Shown: positions 1 through 24,156, counted from the first letter of the stretch. The stretch is 64,000 nucleotides of DNA from Alphaproteobacteria bacterium (GCA_052143835.1 JBKQRV010000093.1:69387-133386); one strand, 5' to 3'. Notes: a model not told the origin generated them from the letters alone. Numbers and translations: made by a program.

Positions 1-1959
1 CTGCGCCTTGCCCCCGAGCAGGTCGTCTGGTTCGGTCCCGGCGATTCGCGCGACTACCTGCTCTATGCGCTCGCCCGGCTCGCCCACAGCGACGTGTCCT
101 TCCTCGGGCCCATGCAGGAGGACCTGGTCCTCGAGATGCAGAAATGGTTCAGCGAGCACGGTCGCAGCATCGGTGTCGCCGCCTCTGATGTAACGGACGG
201 GTGGGAGACCGCGCGCGCGATCGAGGCCCTCGTGGACGAGCGCACCAATGCCTATTTCACCACCGGCAACGGCCTCGTGCAGCGGGCATTGCCTTTTCAG
301 GACGTTCCGGTCGCCTCCGCCTATGAGCAAAGCCTAGGCTATCTCTATTATCTGCTGTGGACCCGCTACGTCAGCGCGGGGCACGCGGCGGCCCAGTCGA
401 TCAACATCACCGGCCTGGAGGCGCTTTATCCGGAGCGGCTGGCGCTCCTCGGCGTGCGCTATGTCGTGGCCCGCGACAGCAAGTTCTACGAGCGGCCTCC
501 GCTCGAGCGGGTCATGGGCTGGCACGGCTACTCGGTCTATGCCTTGCGTGACCCGAATATCTCGGGGTACCGCGTAAGCGGGATCGAGTTCGGCGACACG
601 CTCGCCGACGAGCTGAGGCTGATGCGGCGCCACGGCTTCGATCCGCGGCGGACGGCCGTCCTTCCCGCGAGCGAGCGAGGCTCTTTTGAGGGCTCGGCGG
701 GCCGAGGGGCGGGAACTTTGCAAAGCTCGTCGGTCCGACTGGCGCCGAGCGAGCTGATCTTCTCGGCGAAGAGTTCGGAAGGGCAAAGTCTTGTCGTGCT
801 GCCGTTCAACTGGTCGAGATGCTGGCGGCCGGAGTGGCGTCGCGGAGCGGGTCATCTTACCCGTGCGGACGTCGGGCTCATAGGCGTCGCTTTCGCGGGC
901 GACGTCGAGCTGCATTTGAGCTGGACGGCCGGTTACGGCCGAGGGCGGGCGTGTCTGAAGGAGGATGCGGGGTTGGTCAGCGCGGCAAAGCAAGCCGCGA
1001 GCGAGGTCGGCTTCGCCGAGGCATACGAGCCGTTCGACGAGCATTCCCCGCCCTTTGCCGTGGAGCGGCTGACCTTCGCACGTGACAACGACATGGTGGC
1101 GGAGCGCGAGGCTGCGAGGCGCGGCGACATCGAGGCCGCCGTTCCCGCTTACGTCGCCGCGTCGCTTTCGCAAGATGAGCGCGACGGCCGCAGCTGGTCT
1201 CAAGCGGTCGATTGGCGGTTCACGAGGAGCGGGGAGGGCTATGAGTTCTCGGGCCGAAACGGTGGCGGCGCGAGCCTCGTGGTCCTGCCGCTCGCCTATT
1301 CCTATTGCTGGCGGGCCGCCTGGCAGGGACCGGCCGGCGAGCTCGTGCCGGTCGACCGGGATTGGCTTGGCGTGCTCTTCCGAGAGGCGGCCGCGTTGAG
1401 GCTCGATTTTGCATCAGAGGCTCCCGAGGCGGGCTGCTCGCGCCAGGACCGCATAAGGCAGACGGTCTCCGATCTGCTCGACCAAATCGGCGGGAGGACG
1501 GCCGGCGGGCGCTATGCGCTCGGCGAAACGGTCCGCTTTGGCATCGGCGGCGACGCGGAGGCTTATATGACCTCAGGATGGTCGGGACCTGAGGCCTGGG
1601 GGCGATGGTCGGTGGGCAGGACCGCACAACTTGTCCTAAGGGTCGATCCGCCGTCCTCGGGCGACCTGCAATTGGACGCGGTCGTGGGCGCCCTCATCGG
1701 CGGCGCTCGGCAGTCCGTATCGGCGACGATCGCCGTCAACGGCGTCACGGTCGGCGAGTGGCATTTTGCCGGCGGTAGCGGACCCGCCCCCAGGCAAGTC
1801 ATCGTGCCGCGCCATCTGGTGAGCGGAACGGGCGACATGGTCGTCGAGTTCACGGTCGACGATCCCGTGTCTCCCGCGGCGCTCGGCATGTCGAGCGATG
1901 AGCGCGAGCTCGGACTGAGCTTCGCGAGCCTTGCGGTGAAGGCCGCGGACAAGCATTAG
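1..1959 (+). CDS. 5'-truncated paralog (type A) of the giant membrane-protein family; only the C-terminal soluble region is present. It has two YfhO-C-like beta repeats and one GW-PE-WG module.
   Basis: The reading frame is open from nt 1 with no stop, so the gene continues upstream of the window. It aligns at about 65-70% aa identity with the C-terminal 640 aa of ORFs 13798..17472 and 20488..24156. Shared stretches include LVLEM, VPVASxYEQSLGYLYYLLWTRYVSAG, VVLPFNWSxCW and GWSGPEAWGRWSVG. Confidence 0.8.
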   Translation: MRLAPEQVVWFGPGDSRDYLLYALARLAHSDVSFLGPMQEDLVLEMQKWFSEHGRSIGVAASDVTDGWETARAIEALVDERTNAYFTTGNGLVQRALPFQDVPVASAYEQSLGYLYYLLWTRYVSAGHAAAQSINITGLEALYPERLALLGVRYVVARDSKFYERPPLERVMGWHGYSVYALRDPNISGYRVSGIEFGDTLADELRLMRRHGFDPRRTAVLPASERGSFEGSAGRGAGTLQSSSVRLAPSELIFSAKSSEGQSLVVLPFNWSRCWRPEWRRGAGHLTRADVGLIGVAFAGDVELHLSWTAGYGRGRACLKEDAGLVSAAKQAASEVGFAEAYEPFDEHSPPFAVERLTFARDNDMVAEREAARRGDIEAAVPAYVAASLSQDERDGRSWSQAVDWRFTRSGEGYEFSGRNGGGASLVVLPLAYSYCWRAAWQGPAGELVPVDRDWLGVLFREAAALRLDFASEAPEAGCSRQDRIRQTVSDLLDQIGGRTAGGRYALGETVRFGIGGDAEAYMTSGWSGPEAWGRWSVGRTAQLVLRVDPPSSGDLQLDAVVGALIGGARQSVSATIAVNGVTVGEWHFAGGSGPAPRQVIVPRHLVSGTGDMVVEFTVDDPVSPAALGMSSDERELGLSFASLAVKAADKH

Positions 1960-2370
1960 GCCGCGAAAGACCCTCTCCTTGCGCGCATATTGACGGTCCG
2001 CTTGCGCTCTGCCAAGCTGCCCCGTTGGTCTGATGCGGGCGGCTCCTCGAAGGAAGACGGTCGGGCGGAAAGTCGACTTGAGGATGGACCGCGAGGCAAA
2101 TGCACGACGAGGCGCCGGCTTGGCAGCCGCAGCGCCCTCCAAGAACCATCGCTCCCCTCGCAATCTCCTCTGTTTCGGGCTCATGTGCATCTCGCCGGCA
2201 CTACGGTCCGTTTTACATGCTGCGAATCACGATCGCATCGTCTACCACGATAGTTGCCTGGCTAACTTACCGATGATGTTCGCGGTCGCGAAGAACATTA
2301 GGTGCGCCGGCATGCCCGACTTGCTCGGGGGATCGATGAACGGCCGACCAACCCCTTTGCGGAACTGACC

Positions 2371-5300
2371 ATGGACGGGACCGCTCGCCGATCTGACCGT
2401 TCCTGGCAGCTCGCACTGGCGATTCTCTACCTCGGATTCTACGCTTGGATGCTCGTCGCCGGCCACGGCATGCCATATGTCATGGATGCCAACGAGTCCT
2501 TCTCGATCTTCTGGCACGCTTATAATCTTTTTCATTTCAATATCGGAGACTCGCTGGGCATTACGGACGAGTCCTTCAGCCCGCACGCCGCGGCACATCC
2601 CTATCTTTACACCCACCAAGGCAATTTTCCGCGTCTTTTCGGCTTTCTGATCTATGTGCTCGGCGCGCGCACCATCCAATCCCAGGTGGTGGCAACCACG
2701 GCAATCGTCGGGACGGCGGCGCTCGTTCTCGCCTACCGCTATTTCGCACGGATCGCCGAGCCCCGCTTTGCCGTGATCTATTGCGCACTTCTGGCGACCG
2801 ACTACGTTCTCTATGGGCAGTGGCACGTTGTGACGGACCGCGTCTGGTCCGGGCTTTTCGTTTTCGCGCTCTTGAGCTGTCTGCACGATGCGGGGGGCGA
2901 GCGGCGGCGTCGAGCGCTCGCGTTCCTCTTCTTGATCGGAGCCGGTCTGTTCTACAACGAGCTGGCGTTCGCCGGAATGCTGTCGATTGCCGGCGCGCTT
3001 TACGCCGTCATGATGTTCTGGCGGCGCCCGGCGTTGGCGCTAAGCGCGATCGCGAGCTTTGTCGCAGGCGGGCTCTCGGCCTTGACAATCTTGTTCGCTC
3101 AGTTGAGCGCGCGCTTCGGCACCAGTGCCGTCTTGACGGATCTCTTCTATACCTTCGCCGCCCGCAACTTCGCCGACGACCCGGCCGGTCGCGAGGCTGT
3201 CCGCTCGTTCTTCGAGACGCACAAGATCGCCTTTTGGCCGCAATACGTCAACGGCGACCTCTATCGCAATCTCAAGGAATTCATTTTCTCCCTCAGCCAC
3301 TACGACCTGCAAGTCTACACGCCGATTTTCTGCCTGGTCACGGGGCTGTTGCTCGCGGGATGGGGTCTCGGGGCCGCCCGCACCAAATCTGCAATGCTCG
3401 AGCCGTCGGCGGAGCGCGTGCGGAACGACCCACCGCAGGCCCGATCGCCCGGACAGCGCGCGACCGACCTTGTTCTCCTCATTCATCTCGCGGGCGCGCT
3501 TTTTCTCGTCCTGCGGCCGATCGCGATTGGCGAGGGCGTGTTCGCGCTCTATCCGGCATCCGTTGCGCGTGGCGGTGCGCCGACGGGCCTTCACGTCTCG
3601 CCGGGAACGATCGTCGCCGCGCTGGCCGCGATCGCCGGCGCATTGTCGATCGTCAAGGCGAGCACTGGAAGCTGGTGGGCGACGACCCGGCTGTCGCCCT
3701 GGGCGGCGTTGAGGCTGTTGGCGCTCCTCATCGTGACGGGGGCCGCCCTGGGTTGGCAAAGACTGCTCTATCAGGGCGGCGGAGGGGGGGAACTCGCTGA
3801 CATCTGGATGGTTCCGCTAGCGGCACCCTGGGCGCGAACCGCAGCGCGTTTGGCCGTGGCAACCGCCCTCGTCGTGGCGATCTTCATGGCAATGGGCGGC
3901 GAACGCGCACTCATCGCACGCTCATGTAAAGACATCTTCGCGCGGATCGCACGCTTCGTCATCGCCGGGCTCGCCGGCTACGCCGTGGTCTATTGGCTAT
4001 CGCCGGGCATCGTCTTGAGCGGCTTTCAGTGGCGTTATGCACCCTTCGTCGTCTTTTTCCTTTGTGCGGTGCCGGCCTCGGCGTTCTATCTGCTTGTTCT
4101 CGCAACGGGGCGGCTGCGCGCCGTCTGGCATGAGGGGCATGCCGGCGAAACCGCGATGAGCCTTGCCGCGGCGGGCTTGCTGTTGGCAGGGCTCAGCTAT
4201 TGGGTCGGTCTGCAGCTGAGCTATGTGCGGCTCTTGCCGCCTGACCATGGCAGCTTCTTCCGGCGGCTCGCCGCCCCGCCTTTCCGCGGCCACAGCTTCG
4301 TCGCCAACAGCTACACCGCGCCGCTGACGGCTTTCACCGACGAGTGGGGGTACGCGGATACCGTGATCGGCAAGGGCGGCGTCGTGCTGACCTCGGAGGG
4401 CTATGTGCTTCATCGTGATATGCGCTCCTACCTCTGGTTCGCGGACCGGGGCCGCAATCCCGCCTATGCCTTCCCGGACTTTTATGCATGCTTCGTGCAG
4501 CAGAACCTCGCCAGCGCTGCGGCGCGACGCGTGGCGAAACAGCACGGCTGGCAACCCGCCGGGGGCTGTTCGACGTTGCCGCTCATTGCCGAGGCCGGCC
4601 GGCCGGGCGCGGTGCTGCGCAATGAGGTGGTCGCCCGCGATGCGCCGGATCGCGACTATTGGGCGGTGATCCGCCTCGATCCGGACTACCCGCCTTTCGT
4701 GCGCACGCTTGAAGCGGCGGTGCAAGCGGATGGAGCCGGCGGGCATCGGGTCGTCTACAGCGCCGCCGCCGGGCAGCAGCAGGGCAAGCCCTTAGTGTCC
4801 CCACTCGCCGAACTCGTGGCCATGCCAGGGGACAGCTCGTGCAAGCTCGATCCTAGGCACCTCGTGACGCTGGCCAAGAGCGAGGACGGCGCGCCGTTTC
4901 CCCTGCCGCCCGATTTCACAGGCACGCTCGCATTGCGCTACACGCCGCGCACGGCCACGCGAGCCGGCCAATCGGTGCTTTCGCGACCGTGGCGAGTGAC
5001 GCCGGCCGGAGCCGAGCCTTGCCCCTGGCCGACCGTCGATTACAGCTTCGCCGAGTCTGGCTCGTCGTCGACGTGGCTGTTGGACGGCTGGGGCGATCCC
5101 GAGCCCTGGGGTACTTGGACGGTCGGGCCGGCGGCGCGGCTCGTGCCGGATATTCACACGCTTCCCGACCACGGATTGGTGCTGACGATCATGGCTACAC
5201 CTTTCGTGACGCCGGTGCATCCCTCCGTCGAGGCTTCGCTCCAGGTCAACGGTGTGGCTGTCGGGCACCTGGTTTTTGCTCTCGGTCTTCCCGATCGGCC

Positions 5301-5925
5301 CCGCTCAGTTTTCGTTCCGAGGGCGGCATTGGAGCGCAATATGCCGCCCGAAGTACGTCTTGTCATAACGGATCCGGCATCGCCGCTGGCGCTCGGCATG
5401 TCTTCCGACGAAAGGCTGCTTGGGTTGGGACTGCGCCGGATGCAGTTGGCCGAGGGAGTGGAGCAGCCGGCAATGCTCGTCGAGCCGGGCGAGGATCTCG
5501 ATTTCTCGGCCGGCGGCCATGCCGTCGCGGCCCTGGGAGAGGGATGGATCGCGGCCGAGCCCAGGGGGAGCTGGAGCATTGGCCACACCGCGGACATCCG
5601 GTTCAGGCTCGCCCACCCGATCGGCGGCGATGCAGTGCTGCGGATCGTGGGCGCACCCCTCTTGGCCGCGCGCCGCACCACGGCCTCGGTCGACCTCGCT
5701 GTCAACGGCAGCGCCGTTGGCTCGATCCAGTATCGCCTCGGCGAACAGGAGAGCGAACGGGTTATCAAGATCCCCGGCGCGGCTTTGGCACAGTCGGCGC
5801 AATCGGTGGTCTCGCTTACCCTGCACATGTCCGACGCGAGATCGCCGAAGGAGCTCGGCCTTTCCGACGATCCGCGCCCTTTGGGGTTCTTCCTGCGCCG
5901 GCTGCGGCTCGATCCTGTGCAGTGA
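2371..5925 (+). CDS. Giant polytopic membrane protein (type B). It has an N-terminal domain of about 600 aa with 12 or more TM segments, a periplasmic-type soluble region, and two tandem GW-x2-PE-x-WG-x-W-x-G modules at the C-terminus.
   Basis: ORF 2302..5925. ATG at 2371 (MDGTARR) is preferred over the upstream alternative start. Hydrophobic helices run through about aa 640. The two module copies are GWGDPEPWGTWTVG...SPLALGMSSDERLLGLGL and GEGWIAAEPRGSWSIG...SPKELGLSDDPRPLGFFL. Confidence 0.75.
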   Translation: MDGTARRSDRSWQLALAILYLGFYAWMLVAGHGMPYVMDANESFSIFWHAYNLFHFNIGDSLGITDESFSPHAAAHPYLYTHQGNFPRLFGFLIYVLGARTIQSQVVATTAIVGTAALVLAYRYFARIAEPRFAVIYCALLATDYVLYGQWHVVTDRVWSGLFVFALLSCLHDAGGERRRRALAFLFLIGAGLFYNELAFAGMLSIAGALYAVMMFWRRPALALSAIASFVAGGLSALTILFAQLSARFGTSAVLTDLFYTFAARNFADDPAGREAVRSFFETHKIAFWPQYVNGDLYRNLKEFIFSLSHYDLQVYTPIFCLVTGLLLAGWGLGAARTKSAMLEPSAERVRNDPPQARSPGQRATDLVLLIHLAGALFLVLRPIAIGEGVFALYPASVARGGAPTGLHVSPGTIVAALAAIAGALSIVKASTGSWWATTRLSPWAALRLLALLIVTGAALGWQRLLYQGGGGGELADIWMVPLAAPWARTAARLAVATALVVAIFMAMGGERALIARSCKDIFARIARFVIAGLAGYAVVYWLSPGIVLSGFQWRYAPFVVFFLCAVPASAFYLLVLATGRLRAVWHEGHAGETAMSLAAAGLLLAGLSYWVGLQLSYVRLLPPDHGSFFRRLAAPPFRGHSFVANSYTAPLTAFTDEWGYADTVIGKGGVVLTSEGYVLHRDMRSYLWFADRGRNPAYAFPDFYACFVQQNLASAAARRVAKQHGWQPAGGCSTLPLIAEAGRPGAVLRNEVVARDAPDRDYWAVIRLDPDYPPFVRTLEAAVQADGAGGHRVVYSAAAGQQQGKPLVSPLAELVAMPGDSSCKLDPRHLVTLAKSEDGAPFPLPPDFTGTLALRYTPRTATRAGQSVLSRPWRVTPAGAEPCPWPTVDYSFAESGSSSTWLLDGWGDPEPWGTWTVGPAARLVPDIHTLPDHGLVLTIMATPFVTPVHPSVEASLQVNGVAVGHLVFALGLPDRPRSVFVPRAALERNMPPEVRLVITDPASPLALGMSSDERLLGLGLRRMQLAEGVEQPAMLVEPGEDLDFSAGGHAVAALGEGWIAAEPRGSWSIGHTADIRFRLAHPIGGDAVLRIVGAPLLAARRTTASVDLAVNGSAVGSIQYRLGEQESERVIKIPGAALAQSAQSVVSLTLHMSDARSPKELGLSDDPRPLGFFLRRLRLDPVQ

Positions 5926-6111: not shown

Positions 6112-8481
6112 ATGATGGCCCTGGAGTCACGCGCGCGACACATGTCCAGTGCGGCATTCGTGCCTTTTTCGGAAGTCCGTGCCGCTCGAGGCGATCCGTG
6201 GTGCTTCGGCCTCATGATCGGCGTCCTGGCGCTGTGGCTGATCGTCCACGGCCTATTTTGGGGGCGCCTCATTTACCATGACGCCTGGATGTACAACTTT
6301 CCAAAGATGCTCGGCATTTCGAAGGGCATGGCCTGCGCCGGCCTGCCGGAATGGCTCGGAAAAATCGACTCCGGAACGCCGGTCAGCATCTATACCACTA
6401 GCGACACCATTACCAATCCGCTCCGGCTTGCTCTGCTTTTCTTCATGAGCTGCTTGAAGCCGAGCGTTGAGGCCGCGGTCTATCTCCAAAAGGCGCATAT
6501 CTTCATTTTCTATCTGTGGCTGGCCTCAAGCATGTATGTGATGGGTCGCGTCCTGTTCCGGCACCAGTTGTCGGCCGTTTATCTCTTCGCGGCCACCCTC
6601 TTCGCCGGATTATGCATGCAGACCGCGCACTCCGACCAAGCGGCGGCCATTCTGTTCTGGTTGCCCTGGATCGTGATCTGCCTCGTGAAATTTCACCGCC
6701 AGAAAGCGGAGAGGCAAGCGCACTGGTACTTGAATGCCGCCGCCCTCTTCGTGGCGCTTCAATCGCTTGACCAATCCCCCCATTTTATCGTCTTTGCCGC
6801 CGGGCTCGCATTGATCCTCTACGCCGTGATGTGCCCGCAAGCGCTCCTAGCTGGACTGCGCCTGCACTGGTTGCGTCTCTGGCCCGCGGCATTCTTGCTG
6901 CTGCTGACCGCCGCCCATTTGCATTTCTTGCTGGGCGAAATCGCTGGCTATATTCCCTCTGTGCGACGCGGTTTGAACCTCGTCCCTTCCGAGATCGGCC
7001 AAAACGCGTTGGTCCAGCCGACGGCATTGATCGGTGCCGTCTTTCCGCTCAGCTTTACGGTCGCATACGATTCGCTGGAGTTCGGCCTCCGCACCTGGCT
7101 GGCGGGGATCGGCGTGTCGGGGGGGAGCCGATTCATCTATCGACTCGATGTGCTGATGTTCTTCGTAGGGATCGTCCCAGGCCTGTTGGCCACGGTCTTT
7201 CTCCTGCGCCCGGGCTGCGGGCGGTTGCGCGCCGGGTGGGGGCTGTTCGCGCTGCTCTGCCTGCTTGTGCCGATGCAGGACACCCGACTTTATCTGCTAC
7301 TGTTCCATCTTCCCTTCTTCAATTTGTTTCGCAGCTATCTGTTGCTTTTCCTCTTCGGCCTCTTCGCGGTGCTCGTGATGAGCGGTTTCGGCATGGATGC
7401 GCTGCTCACGCTCGCTTTCGCGGAGCGCCGCCGCTTGATCTGTCAAGCGCTTCTCCTTGGGGCCGTGCTAGCAGCGGACGCGGCGGTCGCATTCGGATGG
7501 CTGCTCTCGCTCCCGGACACTTACACCGCGCTGCCCCGCACGGCCGTGCTTGACATCCTGATTCTCTTGGCCGGCTTCGGCGCGCTGGCCTGGGGCGTCC
7601 TTCGCGCCGGCGATATCCATCGCGGGATGTTCGCGGTCGTTGTCGTGCTCGTGGCGTCGCAGGCCCTGTATCAAGTGGAAGTTTACCGCATCGTGGGCAT
7701 CCCCGTGGCGCAGGTCATCGACCTCTTTGGCCTCGACGCGGCGGATCGGACCCCGCTTCCGGCCGCCACCGTGCGCGACCCCAACGTGCTTACGCGCAAG
7801 CTTTGTGCGCGCTTCGCCGAATGTTATCTCTCGACTCATGACACGGCATCGCTCAACCGCGACCTGCAAGGCACGTTTCTGCGCAGCCGAGAGGAGGCCG
7901 TGTTCCAGCCCGGCCTCGCGCGCCCGGTGATCGAGGCGCTGAGCGCGGTCGGCCATCCCGTCTTCTGGACAAGCCGTGGTGCCGCTAGCTATGTCGATGC
8001 TGCCGAGCTTACCCGGCGGCTCAACGCCCAATCCTCGCGAATCGCCGAGCATCTGAGCGAGGTGGTCTACGTTCGTCCCGACGACCTCGAGCGGCTCGGG
8101 CCATTGCCGAGCAGGGCGAACGACGCCGTGCTGTCCGATCTCTCGCGCGGCATCGATTGGGTGCGCTTGTCCTATGGCGCTGCATCGCCTTTCTACCTGA
8201 ACGCCGCCATCGCTTACGATCCCCATTGGCGGGCGACGGTGGGAGGCAGGGCGGCGACCGTGGTGCGCGGCAACTTCGGCGGCCTCGTGCTCGCCGTGCC
8301 CGCCGGTTCCGGGGCCATCGAATTTCGCTACGTCAATCGCGCGAGCCAGCTTTTCTTCGCCTCGAGGATGATCATGGGCCTGGCAGGCCTCGCCGCTGCG
8401 GCCTGGCTTGTCTTCGCACGGTACGAGCGTCGCCTGGCCGAGGGAGGGCGGGTCGAAAACCGAGGCGGCGGCGGCGCATGA
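6112..8481 (+). CDS. YfhO-like polytopic membrane protein (type C, about 790 aa), a putative GT-C-type glycosyltransferase.
   Basis: ORF 5962..8481, with ATG at 6112 (MMALESR). It has more than 12 predicted TM helices. The C-terminal YDPHWRATVGGRAATVVRGNFGGLVLAVPAGSGAIEFRY is followed by a terminal TM helix (MIMGLAGLAAAAWLVF). This matches the YfhO-family C-terminal signature as I remember it. Confidence 0.6.
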   Translation: MMALESRARHMSSAAFVPFSEVRAARGDPWCFGLMIGVLALWLIVHGLFWGRLIYHDAWMYNFPKMLGISKGMACAGLPEWLGKIDSGTPVSIYTTSDTITNPLRLALLFFMSCLKPSVEAAVYLQKAHIFIFYLWLASSMYVMGRVLFRHQLSAVYLFAATLFAGLCMQTAHSDQAAAILFWLPWIVICLVKFHRQKAERQAHWYLNAAALFVALQSLDQSPHFIVFAAGLALILYAVMCPQALLAGLRLHWLRLWPAAFLLLLTAAHLHFLLGEIAGYIPSVRRGLNLVPSEIGQNALVQPTALIGAVFPLSFTVAYDSLEFGLRTWLAGIGVSGGSRFIYRLDVLMFFVGIVPGLLATVFLLRPGCGRLRAGWGLFALLCLLVPMQDTRLYLLLFHLPFFNLFRSYLLLFLFGLFAVLVMSGFGMDALLTLAFAERRRLICQALLLGAVLAADAAVAFGWLLSLPDTYTALPRTAVLDILILLAGFGALAWGVLRAGDIHRGMFAVVVVLVASQALYQVEVYRIVGIPVAQVIDLFGLDAADRTPLPAATVRDPNVLTRKLCARFAECYLSTHDTASLNRDLQGTFLRSREEAVFQPGLARPVIEALSAVGHPVFWTSRGAASYVDAAELTRRLNAQSSRIAEHLSEVVYVRPDDLERLGPLPSRANDAVLSDLSRGIDWVRLSYGAASPFYLNAAIAYDPHWRATVGGRAATVVRGNFGGLVLAVPAGSGAIEFRYVNRASQLFFASRMIMGLAGLAAAAWLVFARYERRLAEGGRVENRGGGGA

Positions 8482-13803: not shown

Positions 13804-16800
13804 ATGCAACGGCTCGGCATGGGAAAGCGGATTGCGGGTTTCGCGGGTGCGCTTGCATCGCGCGGATGGGCCTTTGCGCCGGCACTTCTGCTGGTGCTTG
13901 CCTTCAACCTCTATTGGTACGGCGCTTTTCTATCGTTCCCCGTGTTCGGGGAAGATGCGGCGTCGCTGTTGTACGTTCTGCTCGACACGATCAAGGGCGG
14001 CCACCTGGCAACCATAGGCTATCCGATGAATTGGTCGGAAGGCCTGGGACAGCCGAATCTCTTCATAACCTTCACCTTCGACCCTTTCGCTTGGGTGATG
14101 CTCCTGCCGCTCGACCCGGCCGATTGCTATCGCATTTCGATGGCGCTTCGTGCCACGGCAGCCTGGGCAGCGGGTTATTGGTTCTGCATCGTGTTGTTTC
14201 GCGGCCGGCCCATGGTCGCGATGTTCTCTGCGACGCTGTACATCCTGATCGGCTTCATTCTTACGAGCGCATGGGGCACCTATATCTGGGCCGGCATGTT
14301 CAATGCGACGCACGCGGCAATTTTTCCGCTTCTGGGAGCCTTTGCTCTCTTGATCATGCGGAGCCCGCGCCGCATAGGCATCGCGGACCTCTGTTTTCTT
14401 GTCTCGGTATTCTTCTTCATCCTCGATTATCCGGTCGGATCTCTGATCGGCATAGCCGTGTTCCTGACTTTCGCCGGCGCCGCAGCGCTTCTGGCACGCC
14501 CAGCCGAGCGCCGGACCGCAATTTGGGGATTCGCCAAAATCGCAGCAATGGTCGCTATCCTCCTTTTTGCTCCGCCGCTTCACATTTTCTCGTCGTGGAC
14601 GGCGCTCATACAGGGATCGGCGCGAGTGGTGTTTTCCGGCGAGCTGTTTGCATACGGCAACAGTCATGTGCCGCCGCTCATGTGGACGCGATCGCCCTGG
14701 GCTCTCAGAGTGTGCATCCTGGTCGGTTTGTCGGTGTTATTGCTCAACCGGCGTTGGCCGCGCCCGCTCCGAGTGCTTGCTGCCACCCTCTTCCTGGTGG
14801 TTGGCGGAGTGCAGCTCTTGGCACTTGTGAAGTATCTCGGGCTTGACGCTGGGCTCGTGGACCGTCTTCCGCGACTTCACTATTTCGAATTCTACTCGCC
14901 GCTTTTTTATGCTGCATGCGGGGGCTTCGCGTTGAGTCACTGGCGGGATGTCGCCTTTCCGGGCCTCGCTGATCGGCGGCATCTGCACGCGTGGACGTTA
15001 CGGACGATCATGTTCCTGGCAATCGCGCTCTACATCCTGCCGACGATCGTCGTTGTCGTTTCCGGCATTCTTCTGATCGTCGCGCACGCCTGGCTGCGCC
15101 GGGAGAGAAAAGGTGTTCGCAGCGTGGTGTCGCCGGTGGGGGGTCGTCTTGTTGCCCGTGCCGTTTTTGTGGCGCTCATCGCCGCCGCGATCGGAACTTG
15201 GCTGCCTCCCAGTGAGAAGATCTATCCTATCTTCTACGCCGAGAGCCGCTGCCGAGACGGCGTGCTTTGGTGCCGCGACCCGCCGGGCGCCACGATGGCT
15301 GTCGGCGACAATCCGATTACGCAGTACTTGCGGCGGGCCTTGAGCGCGGATGAGCATTTCTCCGGGCGCGCCGAGACTTGGGTCAGGCCGCCCGTCCGGA
15401 TCGGCCTTTATGCGCAAGTGGACATGCGGTGGACGGACGAGCTGTTCGCGCGCCTTCATGCATGGTACGCGCGGGCTTACGAAGCTCAAGTCATAAAGGG
15501 CTCGTCGGAGGACGATCTCTTCCGGCTTCCGCCGCAGCGAGTCGATTGGGACCGCCGCCAGTATCTGCTGGACACCCTTGCGAAATTCGCCCGCGGCGAC
15601 CTTCCGTATAACGGCCCGGCCCAGGAGAACCTGGTGCTCGAGATGCGCGACTGGATCGTCAGGCGCGGCCAGATGTTCGGCTTATTCGTAAAGGACTTCA
15701 CCGATCCGTGGCAGGGCATTAACTCCGTCCAGGCCGTCACCGAGGAACGTACGGCTGCGTTTTTCGCCACGGGAAATGGCCTCTTGCTACGAGCAATGCC
15801 GTTTCAGGGCGTTCCTGTCGCGTCGTCCTACGAGCAGGCGCTCGACTATCTTTATTATCTCTTCTGGACTCGGTATGTCAGCGCCGGTCAAGCAGCGTTC
15901 AAATCCATCAACATGACCACTTTGGAGGCACTTCATCCGGACCGCCTTGCGCTTGCGGGAATACGCTTTGTCGTGGCCCGCGACAGCAGCGCTTACGAAG
16001 CTCCTCCCCTCGAGCGGATCATGAGCTGGCAAGGGTATTCGATCTATGCGGTGCGGCATGCGAACGTCGCAGGCTACGCGGTAAAGAATCTCGAGTTCGG
16101 CAATACGCTGACCGAGGAATTGCGCCTGATGCGCCACCATGGTTTCGATCCCCGGCGTACCGCCGTACTTCCGGCGCGCGCGCGCCGTTCGTTTGCGGAC
16201 TCTACATTCCACGCGCCGGGGATGCTGGCGAGTTCATCCATCAGGTTGGCGCCAAACGAATTGACCTACTTGGCGAGGGGTTCCGGCGGTCCCGTTTTTG
16301 TCGTGCTGCCGTTTAACTGGTCGCATTGCTGGCAAGTGGAGTGGCGCAGGGGAACCGGAAATCTCACCCGCGCCGACATCGATCTGGTGGGAGTCGCCTT
16401 CGAGGGCGACGTCGAGCTGCATCTGCGTTGGACCGCCGGCTATGGCGCGCGTAGCCAGTGTCTCGGCGAGGATCAGACGCAGATCCCCGAGGCAAAGCGC
16501 GCGGCGGCCGCGGTCGGATTCGGCCAGGCCTATGAGCCGCTCGATCGGGATTTTCAACCCTTCGCCGCCGCGCGGCCTCGCTTTGCCGCCGACGCAGTCG
16601 ATGAGCGCGAGTTAGAAAGGAGATCCGATTACAGTAGCGGCAACGAAATGGTGGTGCCGAGCAGCGTGGTGGCGCTGCTGTCGAACGACGAGCTCTATGG
16701 GGGGGCGTGGACGACGTCGGTTTCCTCGGAATTCCGCCGGGACAACGGGGAGTACGAGCTCGTTGCCACGAACGACGGGGGTGCAAGCCTCGCGGTCTTG

Positions 16801-17472
16801 CCATTGCGGCATTCTTACTGTTGGCAGGCGGAATGGCGGGGCAAGGCCGGCGCCCTCCTCCCGGTCGACGCGGACCGGCTTAGCGTGCTGTTTCGCGGAT
16901 CCACATCGGTGCGGCTTCTCCTTCCGCCCGCGGACGAGCGCTCGAGCTGTGCGCTGCGCGACCGCGCGCGCGCGGCGGTTTTTGATTTTCTCGCGAACGA
17001 CCCTGTCAAGTCCGACGCGGCTCGCTACCGTCTCGGCGAGGCCATCGCCTTCGGCAGCGGGGGAAACAGCGAGTCCTTCACGGTGGAGGGATGGGGGCAG
17101 CCGGAAGCCTGGGGCCGATGGTCGCTTGGCTCGACCGCCAAGCTCGTGTTGAGAACGAATCCGCCGCCGACCGGTGATCTGATACTCGACGCATCGGTCG
17201 GTGCTCTACTCGCCGGAAGCCGGCGATTCGCGCGTGCGACGATCGTCGTCAACGGCGTCGAGGTCGGCAAGTGGGAGTTTCGTCCCGAGGATACGCCCGG
17301 GCGCCGTCAGGCAACCGTGCCGCGGGATTTGGTGGCGGATATCGGAGTGATGGTAATCGATTTCAAGGTCGACGAGCCCGTCTCGCCCGCCGAGCTCGCA
17401 GTGTCGCTCGATACTCGGCGCCTTGGCCTCAGTCTGCAAAGACTCACTGTGAGAGCCGCCGACAGCTATTAG
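13804..17472 (+). CDS. Giant membrane protein (type A, about 1220 aa). It has an N-terminal polytopic domain of about 450 aa, a large soluble region with two YfhO-C-like repeats, and one C-terminal GW-PE-WG module.
   Basis: ORF 13798..17472 has TTG at 13798 and ATG at 13804. It is paralogous to 20488..24156 over its full length and to 1..1959. The module is GWGQPEAWGRWSLG...SPAELAVSLDTRRLGLSL. Confidence 0.75.
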   Translation: MQRLGMGKRIAGFAGALASRGWAFAPALLLVLAFNLYWYGAFLSFPVFGEDAASLLYVLLDTIKGGHLATIGYPMNWSEGLGQPNLFITFTFDPFAWVMLLPLDPADCYRISMALRATAAWAAGYWFCIVLFRGRPMVAMFSATLYILIGFILTSAWGTYIWAGMFNATHAAIFPLLGAFALLIMRSPRRIGIADLCFLVSVFFFILDYPVGSLIGIAVFLTFAGAAALLARPAERRTAIWGFAKIAAMVAILLFAPPLHIFSSWTALIQGSARVVFSGELFAYGNSHVPPLMWTRSPWALRVCILVGLSVLLLNRRWPRPLRVLAATLFLVVGGVQLLALVKYLGLDAGLVDRLPRLHYFEFYSPLFYAACGGFALSHWRDVAFPGLADRRHLHAWTLRTIMFLAIALYILPTIVVVVSGILLIVAHAWLRRERKGVRSVVSPVGGRLVARAVFVALIAAAIGTWLPPSEKIYPIFYAESRCRDGVLWCRDPPGATMAVGDNPITQYLRRALSADEHFSGRAETWVRPPVRIGLYAQVDMRWTDELFARLHAWYARAYEAQVIKGSSEDDLFRLPPQRVDWDRRQYLLDTLAKFARGDLPYNGPAQENLVLEMRDWIVRRGQMFGLFVKDFTDPWQGINSVQAVTEERTAAFFATGNGLLLRAMPFQGVPVASSYEQALDYLYYLFWTRYVSAGQAAFKSINMTTLEALHPDRLALAGIRFVVARDSSAYEAPPLERIMSWQGYSIYAVRHANVAGYAVKNLEFGNTLTEELRLMRHHGFDPRRTAVLPARARRSFADSTFHAPGMLASSSIRLAPNELTYLARGSGGPVFVVLPFNWSHCWQVEWRRGTGNLTRADIDLVGVAFEGDVELHLRWTAGYGARSQCLGEDQTQIPEAKRAAAAVGFGQAYEPLDRDFQPFAAARPRFAADAVDERELERRSDYSSGNEMVVPSSVVALLSNDELYGGAWTTSVSSEFRRDNGEYELVATNDGGASLAVLPLRHSYCWQAEWRGKAGALLPVDADRLSVLFRGSTSVRLLLPPADERSSCALRDRARAAVFDFLANDPVKSDAARYRLGEAIAFGSGGNSESFTVEGWGQPEAWGRWSLGSTAKLVLRTNPPPTGDLILDASVGALLAGSRRFARATIVVNGVEVGKWEFRPEDTPGRRQATVPRDLVADIGVMVIDFKVDEPVSPAELAVSLDTRRLGLSLQRLTVRAADSY

Positions 17473-17561
17473 AGTATTTTCATAATTGCTGGCGATAACC
17501 GGCGTTGGCGGGATGCTCGGCGCATTCGGCGGAAGACAATCGCATTTCTAACGCGGCTTGT

Positions 17562-18356: not shown

Positions 18357-18480
18357 GGGTAAGACGCGGTCGTGGCCGTCGTCGTCCCGGACAGATGAAG
18401 TTCGCGTGAGGACGCTGATATCGGATCAGTCACATGCGCCGCTGCAGGCTCCGATGCGACCTTGCCTTCGCTGTATTCGG

Positions 18481-19470
18481 CTATGCGTGCAAGGTGAACG
18501 CCGTATCGTCCTCGCGAATAAGGTCGAGGTATTTGCGTCCCCAGGCAATCATGTCCTTGATTCCAACCTGAAGACTGATTTGGGGTTGCCAGCCAAGCTC
18601 CGCGAAGATGCGCGAGCTGTCGAGCCAATACTGCGGGTCCTCGCCTGGCCGCCCCTCTGTCGTCTCGGTCAATTCGTCCATTGCGATACCGAATTGCTCG
18701 GCGAGAATGGCGACGAGATCGTGCACGCTGATGGGTTCCTTCGGGCCCGCATTGTAAATTCTTCCCAACGGCGCTCGCTCGCAGATGAGGTAAATTGCAT
18801 GGGCAAGATCCCGCGCGTGAATAAACGAACGCCGCGTACGGCCGGCGCCCTCGAGCGGCAGCTTTTGCCCGGTTAGGGCGCAGAGCACCGCACGAGGTAG
18901 TACACGATGCAGTTGCTGGCCGGGGCCATAGGCATTCGACGGTCGGATGATGTTCATCGGGAACTTGAAAAACTTCCAAAGTGAAATCAAGTGCAAGTCC
19001 GCGGCCAGCTTCGAGACGGCGTATGGGCTGGCCGGCAAGAGCGGAAAGTCCTCCGTCGCCGGCGACTCGGTGTGGCCATAGAGCTCAGACGTTCCAATTT
19101 GCAGGAAGCGCTCCAAATAGTCCCGCTTCAAGAGCTCTTCGCAAGTCTGGGCGAGGCAGGTGACATTGGTCTCGTAATATCGCCATGACTTGTGCCAGGA
19201 ACTCGAATGCGCGAGCGCTGCGAAATTAACGATCACTTCCGGCTTCTCGCGATCGAGCAGCTCGAAGAGACGATCCTGCTCGAAGACCATATGGATCTGC
19301 TCGTATCGGTAGCGCGAATCGTCCTTGCCCACATCGAGCGTATAGGCCGCGGAGCGCGGGATGTTTCTTCCCACGCAGATAACCCTTCGAGGGTTGGCGT
19401 GCTCAAGAAGATACTTTGCAGTATGTACGGCAAAGACGCCACCGCCGCCAAGCAAGACAAAGGTCCTCAA
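18481..19470 (-). CDS. NAD(P)-dependent epimerase/dehydratase (extended SDR; nucleotide-sugar 4,6-dehydratase or epimerase-like).
   Basis: It has an N-terminal Rossmann motif (LLGGGGVFAV), a YxxxK motif (PYAVSK), and length and overall features of the RmlB/GalE/UXS family. The start appears to be TTG at 19470. Confidence 0.75.
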   Translation of the reverse strand: MRTFVLLGGGGVFAVHTAKYLLEHANPRRVICVGRNIPRSAAYTLDVGKDDSRYRYEQIHMVFEQDRLFELLDREKPEVIVNFAALAHSSSWHKSWRYYETNVTCLAQTCEELLKRDYLERFLQIGTSELYGHTESPATEDFPLLPASPYAVSKLAADLHLISLWKFFKFPMNIIRPSNAYGPGQQLHRVLPRAVLCALTGQKLPLEGAGRTRRSFIHARDLAHAIYLICERAPLGRIYNAGPKEPISVHDLVAILAEQFGIAMDELTETTEGRPGEDPQYWLDSSRIFAELGWQPQISLQVGIKDMIAWGRKYLDLIREDDTAFTLHA

Positions 19471-20487
19471 TGAGTTCTTCCTTTCAGAAATGTGTAGGGA
19501 ACGTTCGACCCGCTGTAGGGCGGCTAAGCTAAGAGAATCCCCCTTCCTTGTAAATAGGACCGGACCGCGGATAAAGGCGTCGGCTTCCCCCGCCCAGCGA
19601 TGGGGCGGCGAAAAGCCGTGCTCCTAGCTTCGCACGCGTCTCAAATCGTCGATCTGGCTGGTTGTGCCCGCCAGATCACATGCTCGCGAAGAGGCTGCTA
19701 CGCGGGGCGCCACCTCGCAAACCGCACAGCAGCTCAACTGCATATGGCGGCGCGCAGAAGACGGAGCTGATATGCCGAAATCTGCGCCCCCGCGACACGA
19801 CTCCGATCCGAGGCTTTTCGGCGCTTGCGGGCCTTTCGCGGGTCGCCTTTCTAGCGAAACGGGGCATGGTTGGTAAGTTGCTTGATTTACCGAGAAGATC
19901 GGGTATTCAGGTGCGCAATGCCTCAGAACTTCAAAAGCCGCCCCGACCGTTCGGGCAGGCGGGTGCGGGCAGGCAAGTGCCAATGCCCGTATATCTCGTT
20001 GACCGGTTCAGGCGATGGAACTATAGATTGAGGTCACTTCACAGAAAAGTAAGTCGCGGCGGGATATCGTGGTACAGAATGATCCGGCCCAAGGCGCGGA
20101 GCACGTAACTCCGCGACGCCTCGCCCGCAACCTCGACCCTCTGGCATCACTTGCGGCCGCCGGAGGGGCACTCTTACAATCTTCCGGCCATGCGGCGCAT
20201 CCTGGGACAGAAGGGCGTTGTAACGCCGCTCGCGGTCGGTCATCTGGGCCACAAATTCCATCGGTGCCGTCCGGAGCCGCAGTTCGCGCGCGGCGCGTCG
20301 GCGGCGTGAGGCGGGTCGCGCTGGCCCGGCAACCTATCCCACCCCAGGGGGGCTCGCTCGGCCGTCTGGGCCGCCGCGGCCGATCCGAGAGCCGTCGCCC
20401 CCGGTATCTGCGCGCACTTCCGCGCGACTTGGCCTTGTTCCTGCGAGTCTGCGCATGAGCGAGCCGTTAGCGTAGCTGAACCAGGCC

Positions 20488-23400
20488 GTGCGGCGAACCA
20501 CACTGACCCCCTATCTCGACAACCTTGTCCGCCTCGTCGCCTCGGACCGGCGCGCTTTTCCGCTCGCTCTCCTGCTGGTGCTGGCGTTCAACCTCTTCTG
20601 GTACGGTGCCTTCCTGTCGTTTCCGCTCTTCGGCGAGGATGCGGGAGCGCTATTCTCCAACCTCCTCGAGACGATCAAGGACGGCCAGCTCGCGACCACC
20701 CATTTCCCCATCAAATGGCTCGAGGGCCTGGGGCAGCCCAATCTCTTCGTCACCTTCACCTTCGATCCGTTCTCGTGGGCGATGCTGCTGCCGCTCGAGC
20801 AGGCGGATTCGTTCCGCCTCTCGATGGCGCTGCGCGCGAGCGCGGGTTGGCTCAGCAGCTACTGGTTCGTGCTCGTGCTTTTTCGCGGCCGGCGCGGCGT
20901 GGCGCTGACCGCGGCGACGCTCTATCTCCTTGTCGATTTCACGCTCATGAACGCGTGGGGAATTCATACTTTCGCCGGCATGTACAACGCGACCCATGCC
21001 GCGCTGTTTCCGCTCCTGCTGGCGCTCGCCCTTCTCGTCATGCGCAGCCGGCGCTGGCTCGGGCCTGCCGATCTCGCCCTTCTCGTCGCGCTGTTTTTCT
21101 TTCTGCTCGATTACCCGATCGGCTCCCTGATCGGCACCTGCGTGCTCCTCGCCTACACGGTCGTGGCTCTCGGACTGACGCGCCCAGCCGAGCGCGCGGC
21201 CGCCGTGCGGGGCCTTGCGAAAATCGTGGCGATGGTGGCGATTCTGCTGCTGGCGCCGCCGCTTCATGTTCTCGCGTCATGGTCGGCGCTGCTGCAGGAT
21301 TCAGCCCGAACAGTCTTTCCCGGCGAGCTGTTCGCTTACGGATATGACTATGTGCCACCGGTGATGTGGGCGCGGACGTCACCCGCTTTGCGCGCCTGCA
21401 TTCTCCTTTGCCTGTCGGTGCTGCTGTTCAATCGGCGCTGGCCGCGCCCCTTGCGCATGGCGGTCGGAACCCTGCTCATAGTAGTCGGTGGCGTGCAGCT
21501 CGCCGCACTCGCCAAGTATCTGGAGTGGGCCCCGACGCTCATCGACCGCCTGCCGCGCTTCCAGTTTTTCGAGTTCTACGCCACGCCCGCTTATGCGGCG
21601 TGCGGTGGCTTCGCGCTCTATTACTGGCGGGACCTGCTGTTTCCGCGCCTGGCGGGGAGGCGGCGCGTCGTGTCGTGGCTGCGGGGTGCCATCCTTTTCT
21701 TCCCTCTCGCCGTCGTCGTCTTGCCGCTTGGGGCGGTTGCGGTCGGCACCTATGCGCTCCTCGCCATCGTCGCGCGCGCGCGCGGCGAGGCTCAGCGCGC
21801 CGACTGGACGGCGTCGCCCGCATCGCAGCGTCTGGTTGCGCGGGCGGCCCTGATCGCGCTCGTGTTGGCCGCGGTCGGGGCCTGGCTGCCTCCGACCGCG
21901 TATATTTATCCCATTTTCTATCTCTACGGCCGTTGCCAGACCGGCCTCTTTTGGTGCCGCGACCCGGCCGGCGTGACGATGGGCATGGGCGACAATCCCA
22001 TCACCCGATATCTGCGCCGGGCGCTCGGCGGGGAAGGGCCGTTCGCGGGGCGCGCGGAGACCCTCGTCAGGCCCCCCGTTCGGTTCGAGCGCGCGCCTGC
22101 GGGGGAAATCAAATGGACGCCCGAGCTCTATGACCGCCTCCACCGGTGGTACGCGCGCGCGTACGACGCATTGGCCGACAAAGGCTCACCCACCGGCGAT
22201 CCCTTTTGGCTGGCGCCGCAGGATTTCACCTGGGAGGCGCGCTGGCCGCTCCTGGTGGCGCTGGACAAATTCGGCCACGGCGACGTGGAGTTCGACGGTC
22301 CCTCCCAGGAGGATCTGATCTTGGAGATGCACAAGTGGTACGACGAGGAGGGCCGCAAGTTCGGCCTGCTTGCGCGCGACTTCATGGACCCATGGGAGGG
22401 CATGCTCTCGGTTACTGCCGCCGTCGATGAGCGGAACGCGGCGTTCTTCGGTACCGGCAATGGCCTCATGATGCGGGCATTGCCGTTCCAGAATGTTCCG
22501 GTCGCCTCCTCGTACGAGCAGAGCCTCGGCTATCTCTATTATCTGCTGTGGACGCGCTACGTCAGCGCCGGCCAGCGCGGGTTCAAGTCCATCAATATGA
22601 CCAGCCTGGAGGCGCTCCACCCGGAACGGCTGGCGCTCTTGGGCGTGCGTTACCTGCTCGCGCGCGACAGCAAGGTCTACGAGCGGCCGCCGCTTCCGCA
22701 CGTCATGAGCTGGAACGGCTATTCGATCTATGAGGTGCCCGGTGCGAACGTCGCCGGTTACGGCGTGAGCGGGGTCGAGTTCGGGAGCACCTTGACGGAC
22801 GAGCTGAGGCTCATGCGGCGACATGGCTTCCACCCGAGAGACACGGCCGTACTGCCCGCGAGCGAGCGCACTTCATTCGAGGGTAGGCCGGCCCGAGCTT
22901 GGGGCACCTTGCAGAGCTCAGCGATCACCCTCACGCCCGGCGAGTTGACGTTTACGGCCGTCGCTTCCGGCGGAGAGAGTTTCGTCGTGCTGCCGTTCAA
23001 CTGGTCGCATTGCTGGCAGGCCGAGTGGCGTAAGGGATCCGGACGCTGGAGCCGCGCGGATGTCGATTTGATCGGCGTCGCCTTTACGGGCGAGATCGAG
23101 CTGCATCTACGGTGGACGGCAGGCTACGGTTCCGCGAGCGCCTGCTTGCGCGACGACCGGAAACAGATCGCCGAGGCAAAGCGCGCGGCGGCCGAGATCG
23201 GCTTCTCACAGCCCTACGAGCCTTTCGACGGCCGCTCGCCGCCCTTCGCCGCGGTCCGGCCGCGCTTCGCCGCGGATGCGGTCGAGGCGACGGTGCTGGA
23301 GCTGAAGTCGATGTACCAGAGCGGCGACGAGGTAGTGGTGCCCATTTCCGTCAAGCAGTTGCTGTCGCCCGCCGAGCTCGATGGCAGCGCCTGGTCGACG

Positions 23401-24156
23401 GGGGTCAACTCGGATTTTCGGCCGAGCACGGACGGGTACGAGCTCGTGGCGCGCAATGAGGGTGGCGTGAGCTTATTGGTCTTGCCGGTGCCCTACTCGA
23501 CCTGCTGGCAGGCGGAGTGGCAGGGAAGCCCCGGCGCCCTCGTCCCCGTCGACGAGAGCTGGCTCGGCGTGCTGTTCCGCGGCGCGGCTGCACTCCGGCT
23601 TCGTCTCCCGGCCGAGGCTGCGCAGGCAAGCTGTGCCCAAGCGGACCGCGCGCGGGAGCGGATCGTCGATCTCCTCAAAGGCGACGCCGGCAAAATCGTC
23701 GGTGGACGCTATACAATCGGCGACACCATCAAGTTCGGAGCCGGCAGCGGCTCTGAATGGTACACGACGCGGGGATGGTGGGGCGCTGAGTCGTGGGGAA
23801 GATGGTCGGTCGGCGACGACGCGCGGCTGGTCCTGCGGCTGGGGGCACCGCCGCCGGGCGACCTGGAGCTCGATGCGGATTTGACGGCTTTGATTCTGCC
23901 CAATCGACCGGAAGTGCGGGCGACGGTGCGCGTCAACGGGATGAAGCTCGCCGTGTGGGACTTCCGTGCCGATAACACGCCCGGCCGACGCCAGGCCATC
24001 GTGCCGCGCGACTTGGTGGCGGATGCGAGGGTGATGATCGTCGATTTCCGGATCGACCATGTGGCCTCGCCGCTCGAGCTCGGCGCTTCGAGCGACAAGC
24101 GGCCCCTGGCACTCGGCTTCCGCAGCCTGACCGTGCGCGTCGCGGGGGCCCATTAG
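20488..24156 (+). CDS. Giant membrane protein (type A paralog, about 1220 aa).
   Basis: The start is GTG at 20488. It is collinear with 13804..17472: AFNL(Y/F)WYGAFLSFP(V/L)FGED, NRRWPRPLR, VPVASSYEQ(A/S)L(D/G)YLYYL(F/L)WTRYVSAG. The C-terminal module is GWWGAESWGRWSVG...SPLELGASSDKRPLALGF. Confidence 0.8.
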   Translation: MRRTTLTPYLDNLVRLVASDRRAFPLALLLVLAFNLFWYGAFLSFPLFGEDAGALFSNLLETIKDGQLATTHFPIKWLEGLGQPNLFVTFTFDPFSWAMLLPLEQADSFRLSMALRASAGWLSSYWFVLVLFRGRRGVALTAATLYLLVDFTLMNAWGIHTFAGMYNATHAALFPLLLALALLVMRSRRWLGPADLALLVALFFFLLDYPIGSLIGTCVLLAYTVVALGLTRPAERAAAVRGLAKIVAMVAILLLAPPLHVLASWSALLQDSARTVFPGELFAYGYDYVPPVMWARTSPALRACILLCLSVLLFNRRWPRPLRMAVGTLLIVVGGVQLAALAKYLEWAPTLIDRLPRFQFFEFYATPAYAACGGFALYYWRDLLFPRLAGRRRVVSWLRGAILFFPLAVVVLPLGAVAVGTYALLAIVARARGEAQRADWTASPASQRLVARAALIALVLAAVGAWLPPTAYIYPIFYLYGRCQTGLFWCRDPAGVTMGMGDNPITRYLRRALGGEGPFAGRAETLVRPPVRFERAPAGEIKWTPELYDRLHRWYARAYDALADKGSPTGDPFWLAPQDFTWEARWPLLVALDKFGHGDVEFDGPSQEDLILEMHKWYDEEGRKFGLLARDFMDPWEGMLSVTAAVDERNAAFFGTGNGLMMRALPFQNVPVASSYEQSLGYLYYLLWTRYVSAGQRGFKSINMTSLEALHPERLALLGVRYLLARDSKVYERPPLPHVMSWNGYSIYEVPGANVAGYGVSGVEFGSTLTDELRLMRRHGFHPRDTAVLPASERTSFEGRPARAWGTLQSSAITLTPGELTFTAVASGGESFVVLPFNWSHCWQAEWRKGSGRWSRADVDLIGVAFTGEIELHLRWTAGYGSASACLRDDRKQIAEAKRAAAEIGFSQPYEPFDGRSPPFAAVRPRFAADAVEATVLELKSMYQSGDEVVVPISVKQLLSPAELDGSAWSTGVNSDFRPSTDGYELVARNEGGVSLLVLPVPYSTCWQAEWQGSPGALVPVDESWLGVLFRGAAALRLRLPAEAAQASCAQADRARERIVDLLKGDAGKIVGGRYTIGDTIKFGAGSGSEWYTTRGWWGAESWGRWSVGDDARLVLRLGAPPPGDLELDADLTALILPNRPEVRATVRVNGMKLAVWDFRADNTPGRRQAIVPRDLVADARVMIVDFRIDHVASPLELGASSDKRPLALGFRSLTVRVAGAH

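Follow-up and report, generated by a model that had tools for sequence, protein, structure and literature searches.

The question raised by this locus was whether the very large membrane-protein genes crowded at one end of a stretch of DNA are copies of a single enzyme, and what such a set of genes would do for its host. The DNA analysed, here called the window, is a stretch of 64,000 nucleotides (GCA_052143835.1 JBKQRV010000093.1:69387-133386) from the metagenome-assembled genome (MAG) of an uncultured soil alphaproteobacterium, deposited as 'Alphaproteobacteria bacterium'; the genes carry tags ACLQME_11520 to ACLQME_11555 and lie on a 142-kb contig. An earlier note, made from the sequence alone, had described the six genes (g1–g6) as paralogues of YfhO, the GT-C-class glycosyltransferase (GT) of the CsbB/GtcA/YfhO systems for teichoic-acid glycosylation in Bacillus, Listeria, and Staphylococcus (PMC8035078, PMC5836110). 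By sequence comparison the six proteins instead form three families: type A (g1, g5, and g6), the g2 family, and YfhO-like proteins (g3 and the N-terminal half of g4). Type A and the g2 family have a predicted GT-C fold, and the locus probably encodes a multi-enzyme system for extracytoplasmic glycosylation from lipid-linked sugar donors, with seven GT-C modules in the inner membrane.

Six genes and three sequence families

The six plus-strand open reading frames (ORFs) were found where the earlier note had placed them, each with an uninterrupted translation:

g1, 1..1959, plus strand: C-terminal 652 amino acids of a type-A protein, the N-terminus being cut by the window; 54–57% identical to g5 and g6
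g2, 2371..5925, plus strand: 1184 amino acids; membrane domain at about residues 1–620
g3, 6112..8481, plus strand: 789 amino acids, divergent YfhO-like protein; about 10 transmembrane (TM) segments, a periplasmic domain, a C-terminal YfhO motif, and a last TM segment
g4, N-terminal half (about residues 1–835), 8997..11501, plus strand: YfhO-like module with the YfhO C-terminal motif and a TM segment (806–824) at its end
g4, C-terminal half (about residues 860–1582), 11575..13745, plus strand: g2-family module, the second membrane module of the protein, in frame with the first
g5, 13804..17472, plus strand: type-A protein of 1222 amino acids (ACLQME_11540); membrane domain at about residues 23–480
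g6, 20488..24156, plus strand: type-A paralogue of 1222 amino acids (ACLQME_11555), 59% identical to g5 over 1206 residues

Translation of g4 as a whole (8997..13745) gives 1582 amino acids. The start of g3 is placed at 6142 in other assemblies. The gene cluster extends past the left edge of the window; the full-length g1 product has 1219 amino acids (P0009, ACLQME_11520) and is carried by a different assembly, L001 (GCA_052916185.1). As had been claimed, all six proteins are polytopic: a crude hydropathy count gave 9–12 TM segments for each and 23 for g4, and AlphaFold models contained about 13 membrane helices in g5 and about 15 in g2. In each protein, a long hydrophobic stretch at the N-terminus gives way to a large hydrophilic region. 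The array is not the contiguous run of about 22 kb described before, however; its coding total is about 20 kb, and two minus-strand genes (a GT2 and a short-chain dehydrogenase/reductase, SDR) plus a non-coding spacer of about 1 kb separate g5 from g6.

An array of this kind could be an artefact of assembly or annotation, arising from collapsed or duplicated contigs or from spurious ORFs. The source is a MAG, one assembly has a 1-nucleotide indel in the GT2 gene, and many long antisense or otherwise spurious ORFs are typical of high-GC DNA. The GC content at third codon positions (GC3) was nevertheless 0.73–0.83 in g1–g6, which backs the plus-strand frames against the many antisense ORFs. DNA identity among g1, g5, and g6 was only 69–77%, and stretches of the array were found unchanged elsewhere: the g1-g2-g3-g4 stretch recurs identically in L001, and an ENA assembly (L012) holds an identical stretch running from g5 through the GT2, the SDR, g6, a further gene (g7), and a methyltransferase to GT genes. 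On these two grounds we rejected the assembly-artefact explanation. The arrangement recurs in independent assemblies and samples, and the same architectures occur in relatives from other phyla; we give an artefact of either kind practically no chance of being the right explanation.

Relations among the six proteins were determined by all-against-all BLASTP, profile searches, and hhalign comparison of family profiles. Only g1, g5, and g6 proved to be true paralogues, with 54–59% amino acid identity over their full length. Between g2 and type A, BLASTP found only a C-terminal domain of about 130 amino acids in common, present in two copies in g2. The match between g3 and g4 covered 51 amino acids and corresponded to the motif spotted in the earlier note, and residues 600–746 of g2 weakly matched 1431–1563 of g4. 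Profiles of the TM domains of type A, the g3 family, and the g2 family did not match one another (hhalign probability below 3%). Whole-alignment hhalign among the three families was likewise insignificant, usable signal coming only from sliced domains and from the profile of the g4 N-terminal half. The latter profile matched the g2 family remotely over the N-terminal core (84%, E 7.5e-6) and type A remotely at the N-terminus (42%). Sliced domains showed that type A contains two homologous beta-sandwiches (internal duplication, 99.5%), the first of which aligned with the C-terminal domain of the g3 family (71%, E 3.6e-5). The YfhO-C-like beta repeats previously reported for type A and g2 thus have modest backing in type A and none in g2.

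These remote matches, taken with the YfhO C-terminal motif in g3 and g4 and with relatives that pass the Pfam YfhO model, are what would favor a single expanded YfhO family of six members, as originally proposed. Such a family should not fall apart into TM domains without mutual profile similarity, held together in BLAST only by common C-terminal modules. Moreover, no YfhO match was found for g1, g2, g5, g6, or their relatives, and the top matches described below, from solved structures, of which YfhO has none, were AftD, STT3, and ArnT. We consider descent of all six from one YfhO family very unlikely.

The YfhO label does apply, in a divergent sense, to g3 and the N-terminal half of g4. Both carry the C-terminal signature that had been reported, YDPHWRATVGG at residue 702 of g3 followed by a TM segment at 749–767, and FDPYWRAYIGG at residue 759 of g4 followed by one at 806–824. 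When the proteins were searched with the Pfam YfhO model (PF09586; gathering cut-off, 28.5 bits), g3 scored 15 bits (E 0.008), below the cut-off, with a match confined to profile positions 778–825, the last 48; in the same scan g1, g2, g4, g5, and g6 gave no match at E<=1. Nothing reached threshold when the six proteins were scanned against NCBIfam. Relatives of the two proteins scored higher. PF09586 was matched by 15 of the 28 g3-family members (best, 1.7e-8), with P0054 at 33.8 and P0060 at 28.5 bits. Relatives of the g4 N-terminal half scored 45.2 (P0065, which is 78% identical to it), 48.8 (P0069), 44.0 (P0071), and 34.9 bits (P0062), and these matches took in the N-terminal core of the profile as well as its C-terminal end. 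The family of the g4 N-terminal half also matched the g3 family over its full length (hhalign 95.1% over 676 columns, E 3e-8). Because relatives pass the PF09586 cut-off and the two profiles match throughout, we conclude from sequence that g3 and the g4 N-terminal half are divergent YfhO-like proteins, although neither of the two reaches the cut-off itself and type A and g2 belong to separate families.

The C-terminal half of g4 belongs elsewhere. A g2-family profile (A3) matched g4 at residues 972–1402 (independent E-value 1e-11) and 1420–1559 (5e-7), and stand-alone relatives (P0068–P0078) were 33–48% identical to g4 over residues 1–830. Thus g4 is an in-frame fusion of two membrane modules; in L004, L007, and L008 the same two modules are separate genes. 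Outside the locus, a g2-like module is fused repeatedly to other large N-terminal parts, as in the g2-family relatives P0169 (2113 amino acids) and P0199 (2166 amino acids), where it begins at about residue 970–1030.

Database matches also revealed two further g3-like, that is YfhO-like, paralogues upstream on the same contig, P0033 (ACLQME_11395; 58% identical to g3) and P0047 (ACLQME_11505; 43%). This MAG therefore has more GT-C genes than the six described here. In a Logan contig (L002) P0047 is preceded by a methyltransferase gene.

Predicted folds and domain architecture

Neither type A with its 25 relatives nor the membrane domain of the g2 family matched a Pfam model at threshold. A weak DUF7024 match, below cut-off, was seen at residues 521–647 of g1; a literature search on DUF7024 found nothing. 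No GT-C enzyme was found when PDB sequences were searched, whether the query was a single protein or a family profile. Structures were predicted with AlphaFold from family alignments, for g5 residues 23–1222 (predicted local distance difference test, pLDDT, 79; predicted template modelling score, pTM, 0.71) and for g2 (pLDDT 86, pTM 0.80). The membrane cores of both models superposed on solved GT-C enzymes, and AftD, STT3, and ArnT were the best structural matches. In an independent ranking by Foldseek, AftD came first for the g5 model (E 6.8e-7). Over structurally aligned residues, identity to the mycobacterial arabinofuranosyltransferases was only 11–14%. On these models, type A and the g2 family have the GT-C fold.

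The catalytic carboxylates of GT-C enzymes sit directly after TM1 (PMC11127046). Acidic residues in this position are conserved in all three families: E50, D51, and D93 in type A (21–23 of 22–23 sequences), D57 (28/28) and D86 in the g3 family, and D39, E42, D66, and E67 in the g2 family (48/48). These acids would lie at the active site. The idea that the genes encode GT-C enzymes, raised in the earlier note, is thus supported by the predicted folds of g5 and g2, by the acids after TM1, and by the polysaccharide genes nearby.

Two other readings of the fold were weighed. First, some of the proteins, type A especially, could be oligosaccharyltransferases or protein glycosyltransferases (STT3/PglB/AglB-like or PMT-like) acting on periplasmic or surface proteins. 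STT3- and PMT-like matches do rank high, but we regard this reading as unlikely. Second, the proteins could have the GT-C fold without transferase activity, or with other chemistry, for example as polymerases or ligases that use oligosaccharides linked to undecaprenyl diphosphate, or as scaffolds or export components. The conservation of the post-TM1 acids in every family argues against this, as do the top matches, which are all active transferases using lipid-phosphate sugars and do not include WaaL, Wzy, or SEDS-type proteins; the second reading has only a slim prospect of being correct.

Beyond the membrane domain, g5 has a helical periplasmic domain, then the duplicated beta-sandwich (motifs at 835 and 999), and at the C-terminus a domain resembling a carbohydrate-binding module (CBM). 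The paralogue g6 scored 2078 bits against the A2 profile. The remainder of g2 comprises an alpha/beta domain in the periplasm, then a beta-sandwich, and finally a pair of CBM-like jelly rolls (about residues 892–1026 and 1039–1181). The most conserved stretch of type A, TGNGL..RALPFQGVPVASSYEQ.LGYLYYLLWTRYVSAG, contains many invariant residues and is periplasmic, lying at about residues 649–713 of g5 (about 15748–15942 in the window). It is also the lowest-confidence part of the AlphaFold model (pLDDT about 48–55) and may be a flexible substrate-binding loop.

Neighboring genes and a proposed glycosylation system

The genes around and to the right of the array bear out the polysaccharide-locus setting claimed earlier. 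The last six features below were assigned from Pfam, NCBIfam, and the gene calls of L012.

17562-18356, minus strand: small soluble GT2, 264 amino acids (Pfam Glycos_transf_2, 1.3e-15)
18481-19470, minus strand: SDR, an NAD-dependent nucleoside-diphosphate-sugar dehydratase/epimerase (Pfam GDP_Man_Dehyd and Epimerase, about 1e-38)
19471-20487, no strand: spacer of about 1 kb without a convincing ORF, between the divergently transcribed SDR-GT2 pair and g6
24401-26143, minus strand: g7, 580 amino acids, multi-TM orphan adjoining g6, with at least 8 hydrophobic segments
26374-27141, minus strand: S-adenosylmethionine-dependent methyltransferase
27235-28749, plus strand: GT4
28511-29719, plus strand: GT2
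29503-30894, plus strand: GT4
30946-32265, minus strand: Wzt ABC-transporter ATPase with a C-terminal Wzt_C glycan-binding domain
32262-33203, minus strand: GT2

The presence of a Wzt_C domain implies that the polymer bears a terminal cap and is exported by an ABC transporter, and the cap could be the work of the methyltransferase at 26374-27141. The small GT2 showed generic GT2 similarity and weak matches to ArnC (E about 3e-4 to 3e-6), and is a candidate synthase of a lipid-phosphate sugar donor. The best NCBIfam match of the SDR was dTDP-glucose 4,6-dehydratase (173 bits, far below the equivalog cut-off of 365 bits).

We propose, as the likely explanation, that the locus encodes a system in which several enzymes glycosylate a polymer outside the cytoplasm. 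The seven GT-C modules would be g1, g5, and g6 of type A, g2 and the g4 C-terminal half of the g2 family, and YfhO-like g3 and the g4 N-terminal half, each combining a polytopic core, with acids after TM1, and large periplasmic beta-sandwich or CBM-like domains. The small GT2, supplied by the adjacent SDR, would place a sugar on undecaprenyl phosphate at the cytoplasmic face. A flippase, none of which was recognised in the window, would then carry the lipid-linked sugar to the periplasmic face, where the GT-C modules, gripping a polymer by their carbohydrate-binding domains, would add sugars to it. The acceptor would most likely be the polysaccharide that the neighboring GT4 and GT2 enzymes build and that the Wzt-type ABC transporter exports. 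With several kinds of module, several kinds of linkage or side chain would be produced. In this scheme the donor, the acceptor, the flippase, and the residues responsible for catalysis are all inferred. A stronger version, in which the seven modules, including the natural GT-C-GT-C fusion, act as a periplasmic assembly line that builds a substantial branched glycan domain in a diderm, is a more speculative idea that we hold to be doubtful. If true, such an assembly line would exceed the addition of single side-chain sugars and would be a proteobacterial counterpart of mycobacterial arabinan or lipomannan synthesis.

Several observations weigh against a multi-enzyme glycosylation system. No GT-C candidate in the window reached any curated family threshold in Pfam or NCBIfam. 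Because the type-A and g2-family profiles found no solved GT-C enzyme by sequence, the GT-C assignment depends on predicted structures for g1, g2, g5, and g6; for g3 and g4, a GT-C fold is suggested only by homology to YfhO. The translated small GT2 has no TM anchor, and its GT2 similarity is generic. Among the window genes scanned there was no Wzm permease and, by Pfam, no GtrA-, SMR-, or MATE-type flippase. Finally, all of the sequences used as evidence come from MAGs.

The orphan g7 may be another membrane enzyme, or it may be the flippase that the scheme lacks. It had no Pfam or NCBIfam match and no profile similarity to the three GT-C families (hhalign below 2%). It is a called gene in four assemblies, had only four close relatives in a metagenome scan, and is likewise next to a g6-type gene in L016. 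No small hydrophobic ORF was found in the intergenic gaps of 1-34000.

Over 17400-18500 the window and the ENA assembly are identical except for the 1-nucleotide indel, which lies at 17746-17747 inside the GT2 gene and in L012 (13106-13717) shifts the frame to give a 203-amino-acid product. The 264-amino-acid frame of the window is the conserved one, because alignment with the GT2 homologue of L010, a betaproteobacterial locus, runs through to the end of this frame and takes in the motif S-x-G-F-G-F-Q-A-E. We take this motif to resemble the G-Y-x-F-Q-x-E motif of DPM1-type enzymes.

Distribution and relation to known systems

Type A is rare: a search of 5.8 billion proteins yielded 26 clusters, and 185,579 species genomes contained 8 loci. 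All carriers were MAGs, assigned to Alphaproteobacteria, Stellaceae, Sulfurifustaceae, Betaproteobacteria UBA5216, Methylomirabilota, and ANGP1. In the Alphaproteobacteria, Stellaceae, Sulfurifustaceae, and Betaproteobacteria MAGs, type-A genes adjoin genes like g3, the g4 N-terminal half, the g4 C-terminal half, or g2, and tandem type-A genes occur in Methylomirabilota (three copies in the locus) and ANGP1. The g2 family is large, with 2991 representatives at 50% identity at E<=1e-3 and 322 at E<=1e-30; the members looked up were all annotated 'hypothetical protein' and came from MAGs such as those of Gemmatales and Chloroflexota. In L010 the GT2 homologue, 35% identical to the small GT2 of the window, lies beside a type-A gene, a YfhO-like gene, and a gene for a flippase-like protein of the LPG_synthase_TM kind; the neighbors there also include two DegT aminotransferases, a PIG-L deacetylase, and a methyltransferase.

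Comparison with YfhO systems showed likenesses and differences. The N-terminal polytopic core and large extracytoplasmic domain of YfhO are shared by g3 and the g4 N-terminal half, as is the Y/F-D-P-x-W-R-A...G-G motif before the last TM segment; relatives exceed the Pfam cut-off, and a GT2 is nearby. The window proteins themselves, however, score below the cut-off, four of the six genes are not YfhO by sequence, the host is a diderm alphaproteobacterium without teichoic acids, and the window has no GtcA/GtrA gene. The three-component systems of a GT-A enzyme, a flippase, and a GT-C enzyme are a precedent for the logic proposed here (PMC8035078), and GT-C enzymes bearing CBMs modify ABC-transporter-dependent O-antigens (PMC11127046). 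Gram-negative bacteria also have GT-C enzymes that depend on undecaprenyl-phosphate sugars, among them ArnT (GT83) and those of the three-component Gtr, Gml, and GT136 systems for O-antigen modification; in these, each modification has one GT-C enzyme, a recognisable flippase, and a membrane-anchored donor synthase of GtrB or UbiA type (PMC11127046), whereas in the window seven modules accompany a GT2 without an anchor, and no flippase can be recognised. Compared with mycobacterial AftD, AftA, AftB, and EmbA/B/C, identity is only 11–14% over structurally aligned residues, sequence searches of solved structures returned no GT-C enzyme, and the host is a proteobacterium; about 40 window genes scanned included none of a decaprenyl-phosphoribose/arabinose pathway (UbiA-type synthase, DprE1/E2). 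In the number and diversity of its GT-C enzymes, the locus is nonetheless closer to mycobacterial arabinan assembly than to the three-component systems.

Clustering of the AlphaFold database has brought out a dark family of YfhO-like TM glycosyltransferases, 'component 27' (PMC10584680). Like the families described here, it is an uncharacterised bacterial GT-C family tied to YfhO and STT3/PglB only by structure or remote homology; its members, compared by description only, are shorter than the window proteins (median 665 amino acids). The enzyme class and general mechanism are already known, and dark YfhO-like GT-C families are likewise on record (PMC10584680). The literature searched contained nothing relevant on tandem or fused GT-C modules. 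Within that literature, a proteobacterial locus so dense in GT-C modules, the GT-C-GT-C fusion, the two GT-C families without model or annotation, and the conserved association of these families across phyla appear to be undescribed.

Extracytoplasmic glycosylation by GT-C enzymes is a one-enzyme decoration in Gram-negative bacteria and a multi-enzyme process in mycobacteria. This locus and its syntenic relatives, which come from uncultured soil and groundwater bacteria of several phyla, suggest that multi-GT-C systems exist in Proteobacteria too. The two families without a model, the rare type A and the g2 family with about 3000 clusters at 50% identity, are seen as GT-C only by predicted fold and are candidates for new CAZy-type families. 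The appended CBM-like domains could serve as glycan-binding reagents.

Some further observations concern the composition and contents of the window. GC3 was 0.70–0.83 in the six GT-C genes, the small GT2, the SDR, and g7, as against about 0.82–0.92 in most other window genes (1-27000 versus 27000-64000), with the minimum, 0.70–0.73, in g5, the small GT2, the SDR, and g7; the array genes may have been acquired horizontally. The spacer at 19471-20487, which sits in the part of the window lowest in GC (0.59 over 18001-20000 versus 0.60–0.70 elsewhere), had no Rfam match and no promoter-like site inside. Across the spacer regions in general, scans with Rfam and for promoters and terminators turned up nothing of note. 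Beyond 33.2 kb the genes are of housekeeping type (Liv-type ABC transporters, acyl-CoA synthetase, glutathione S-transferase, and others). A 556-amino-acid ORF at 40793-42463 on the minus strand had a GC3 of 0.85 and no Pfam match. Three sets of Liv-type ABC transporter genes, of the branched-chain amino acid family, lie within 28 kb at 34811-39091, 52815-57500, and 57427-62353, each set comprising a binding protein, permeases, and ATPases.

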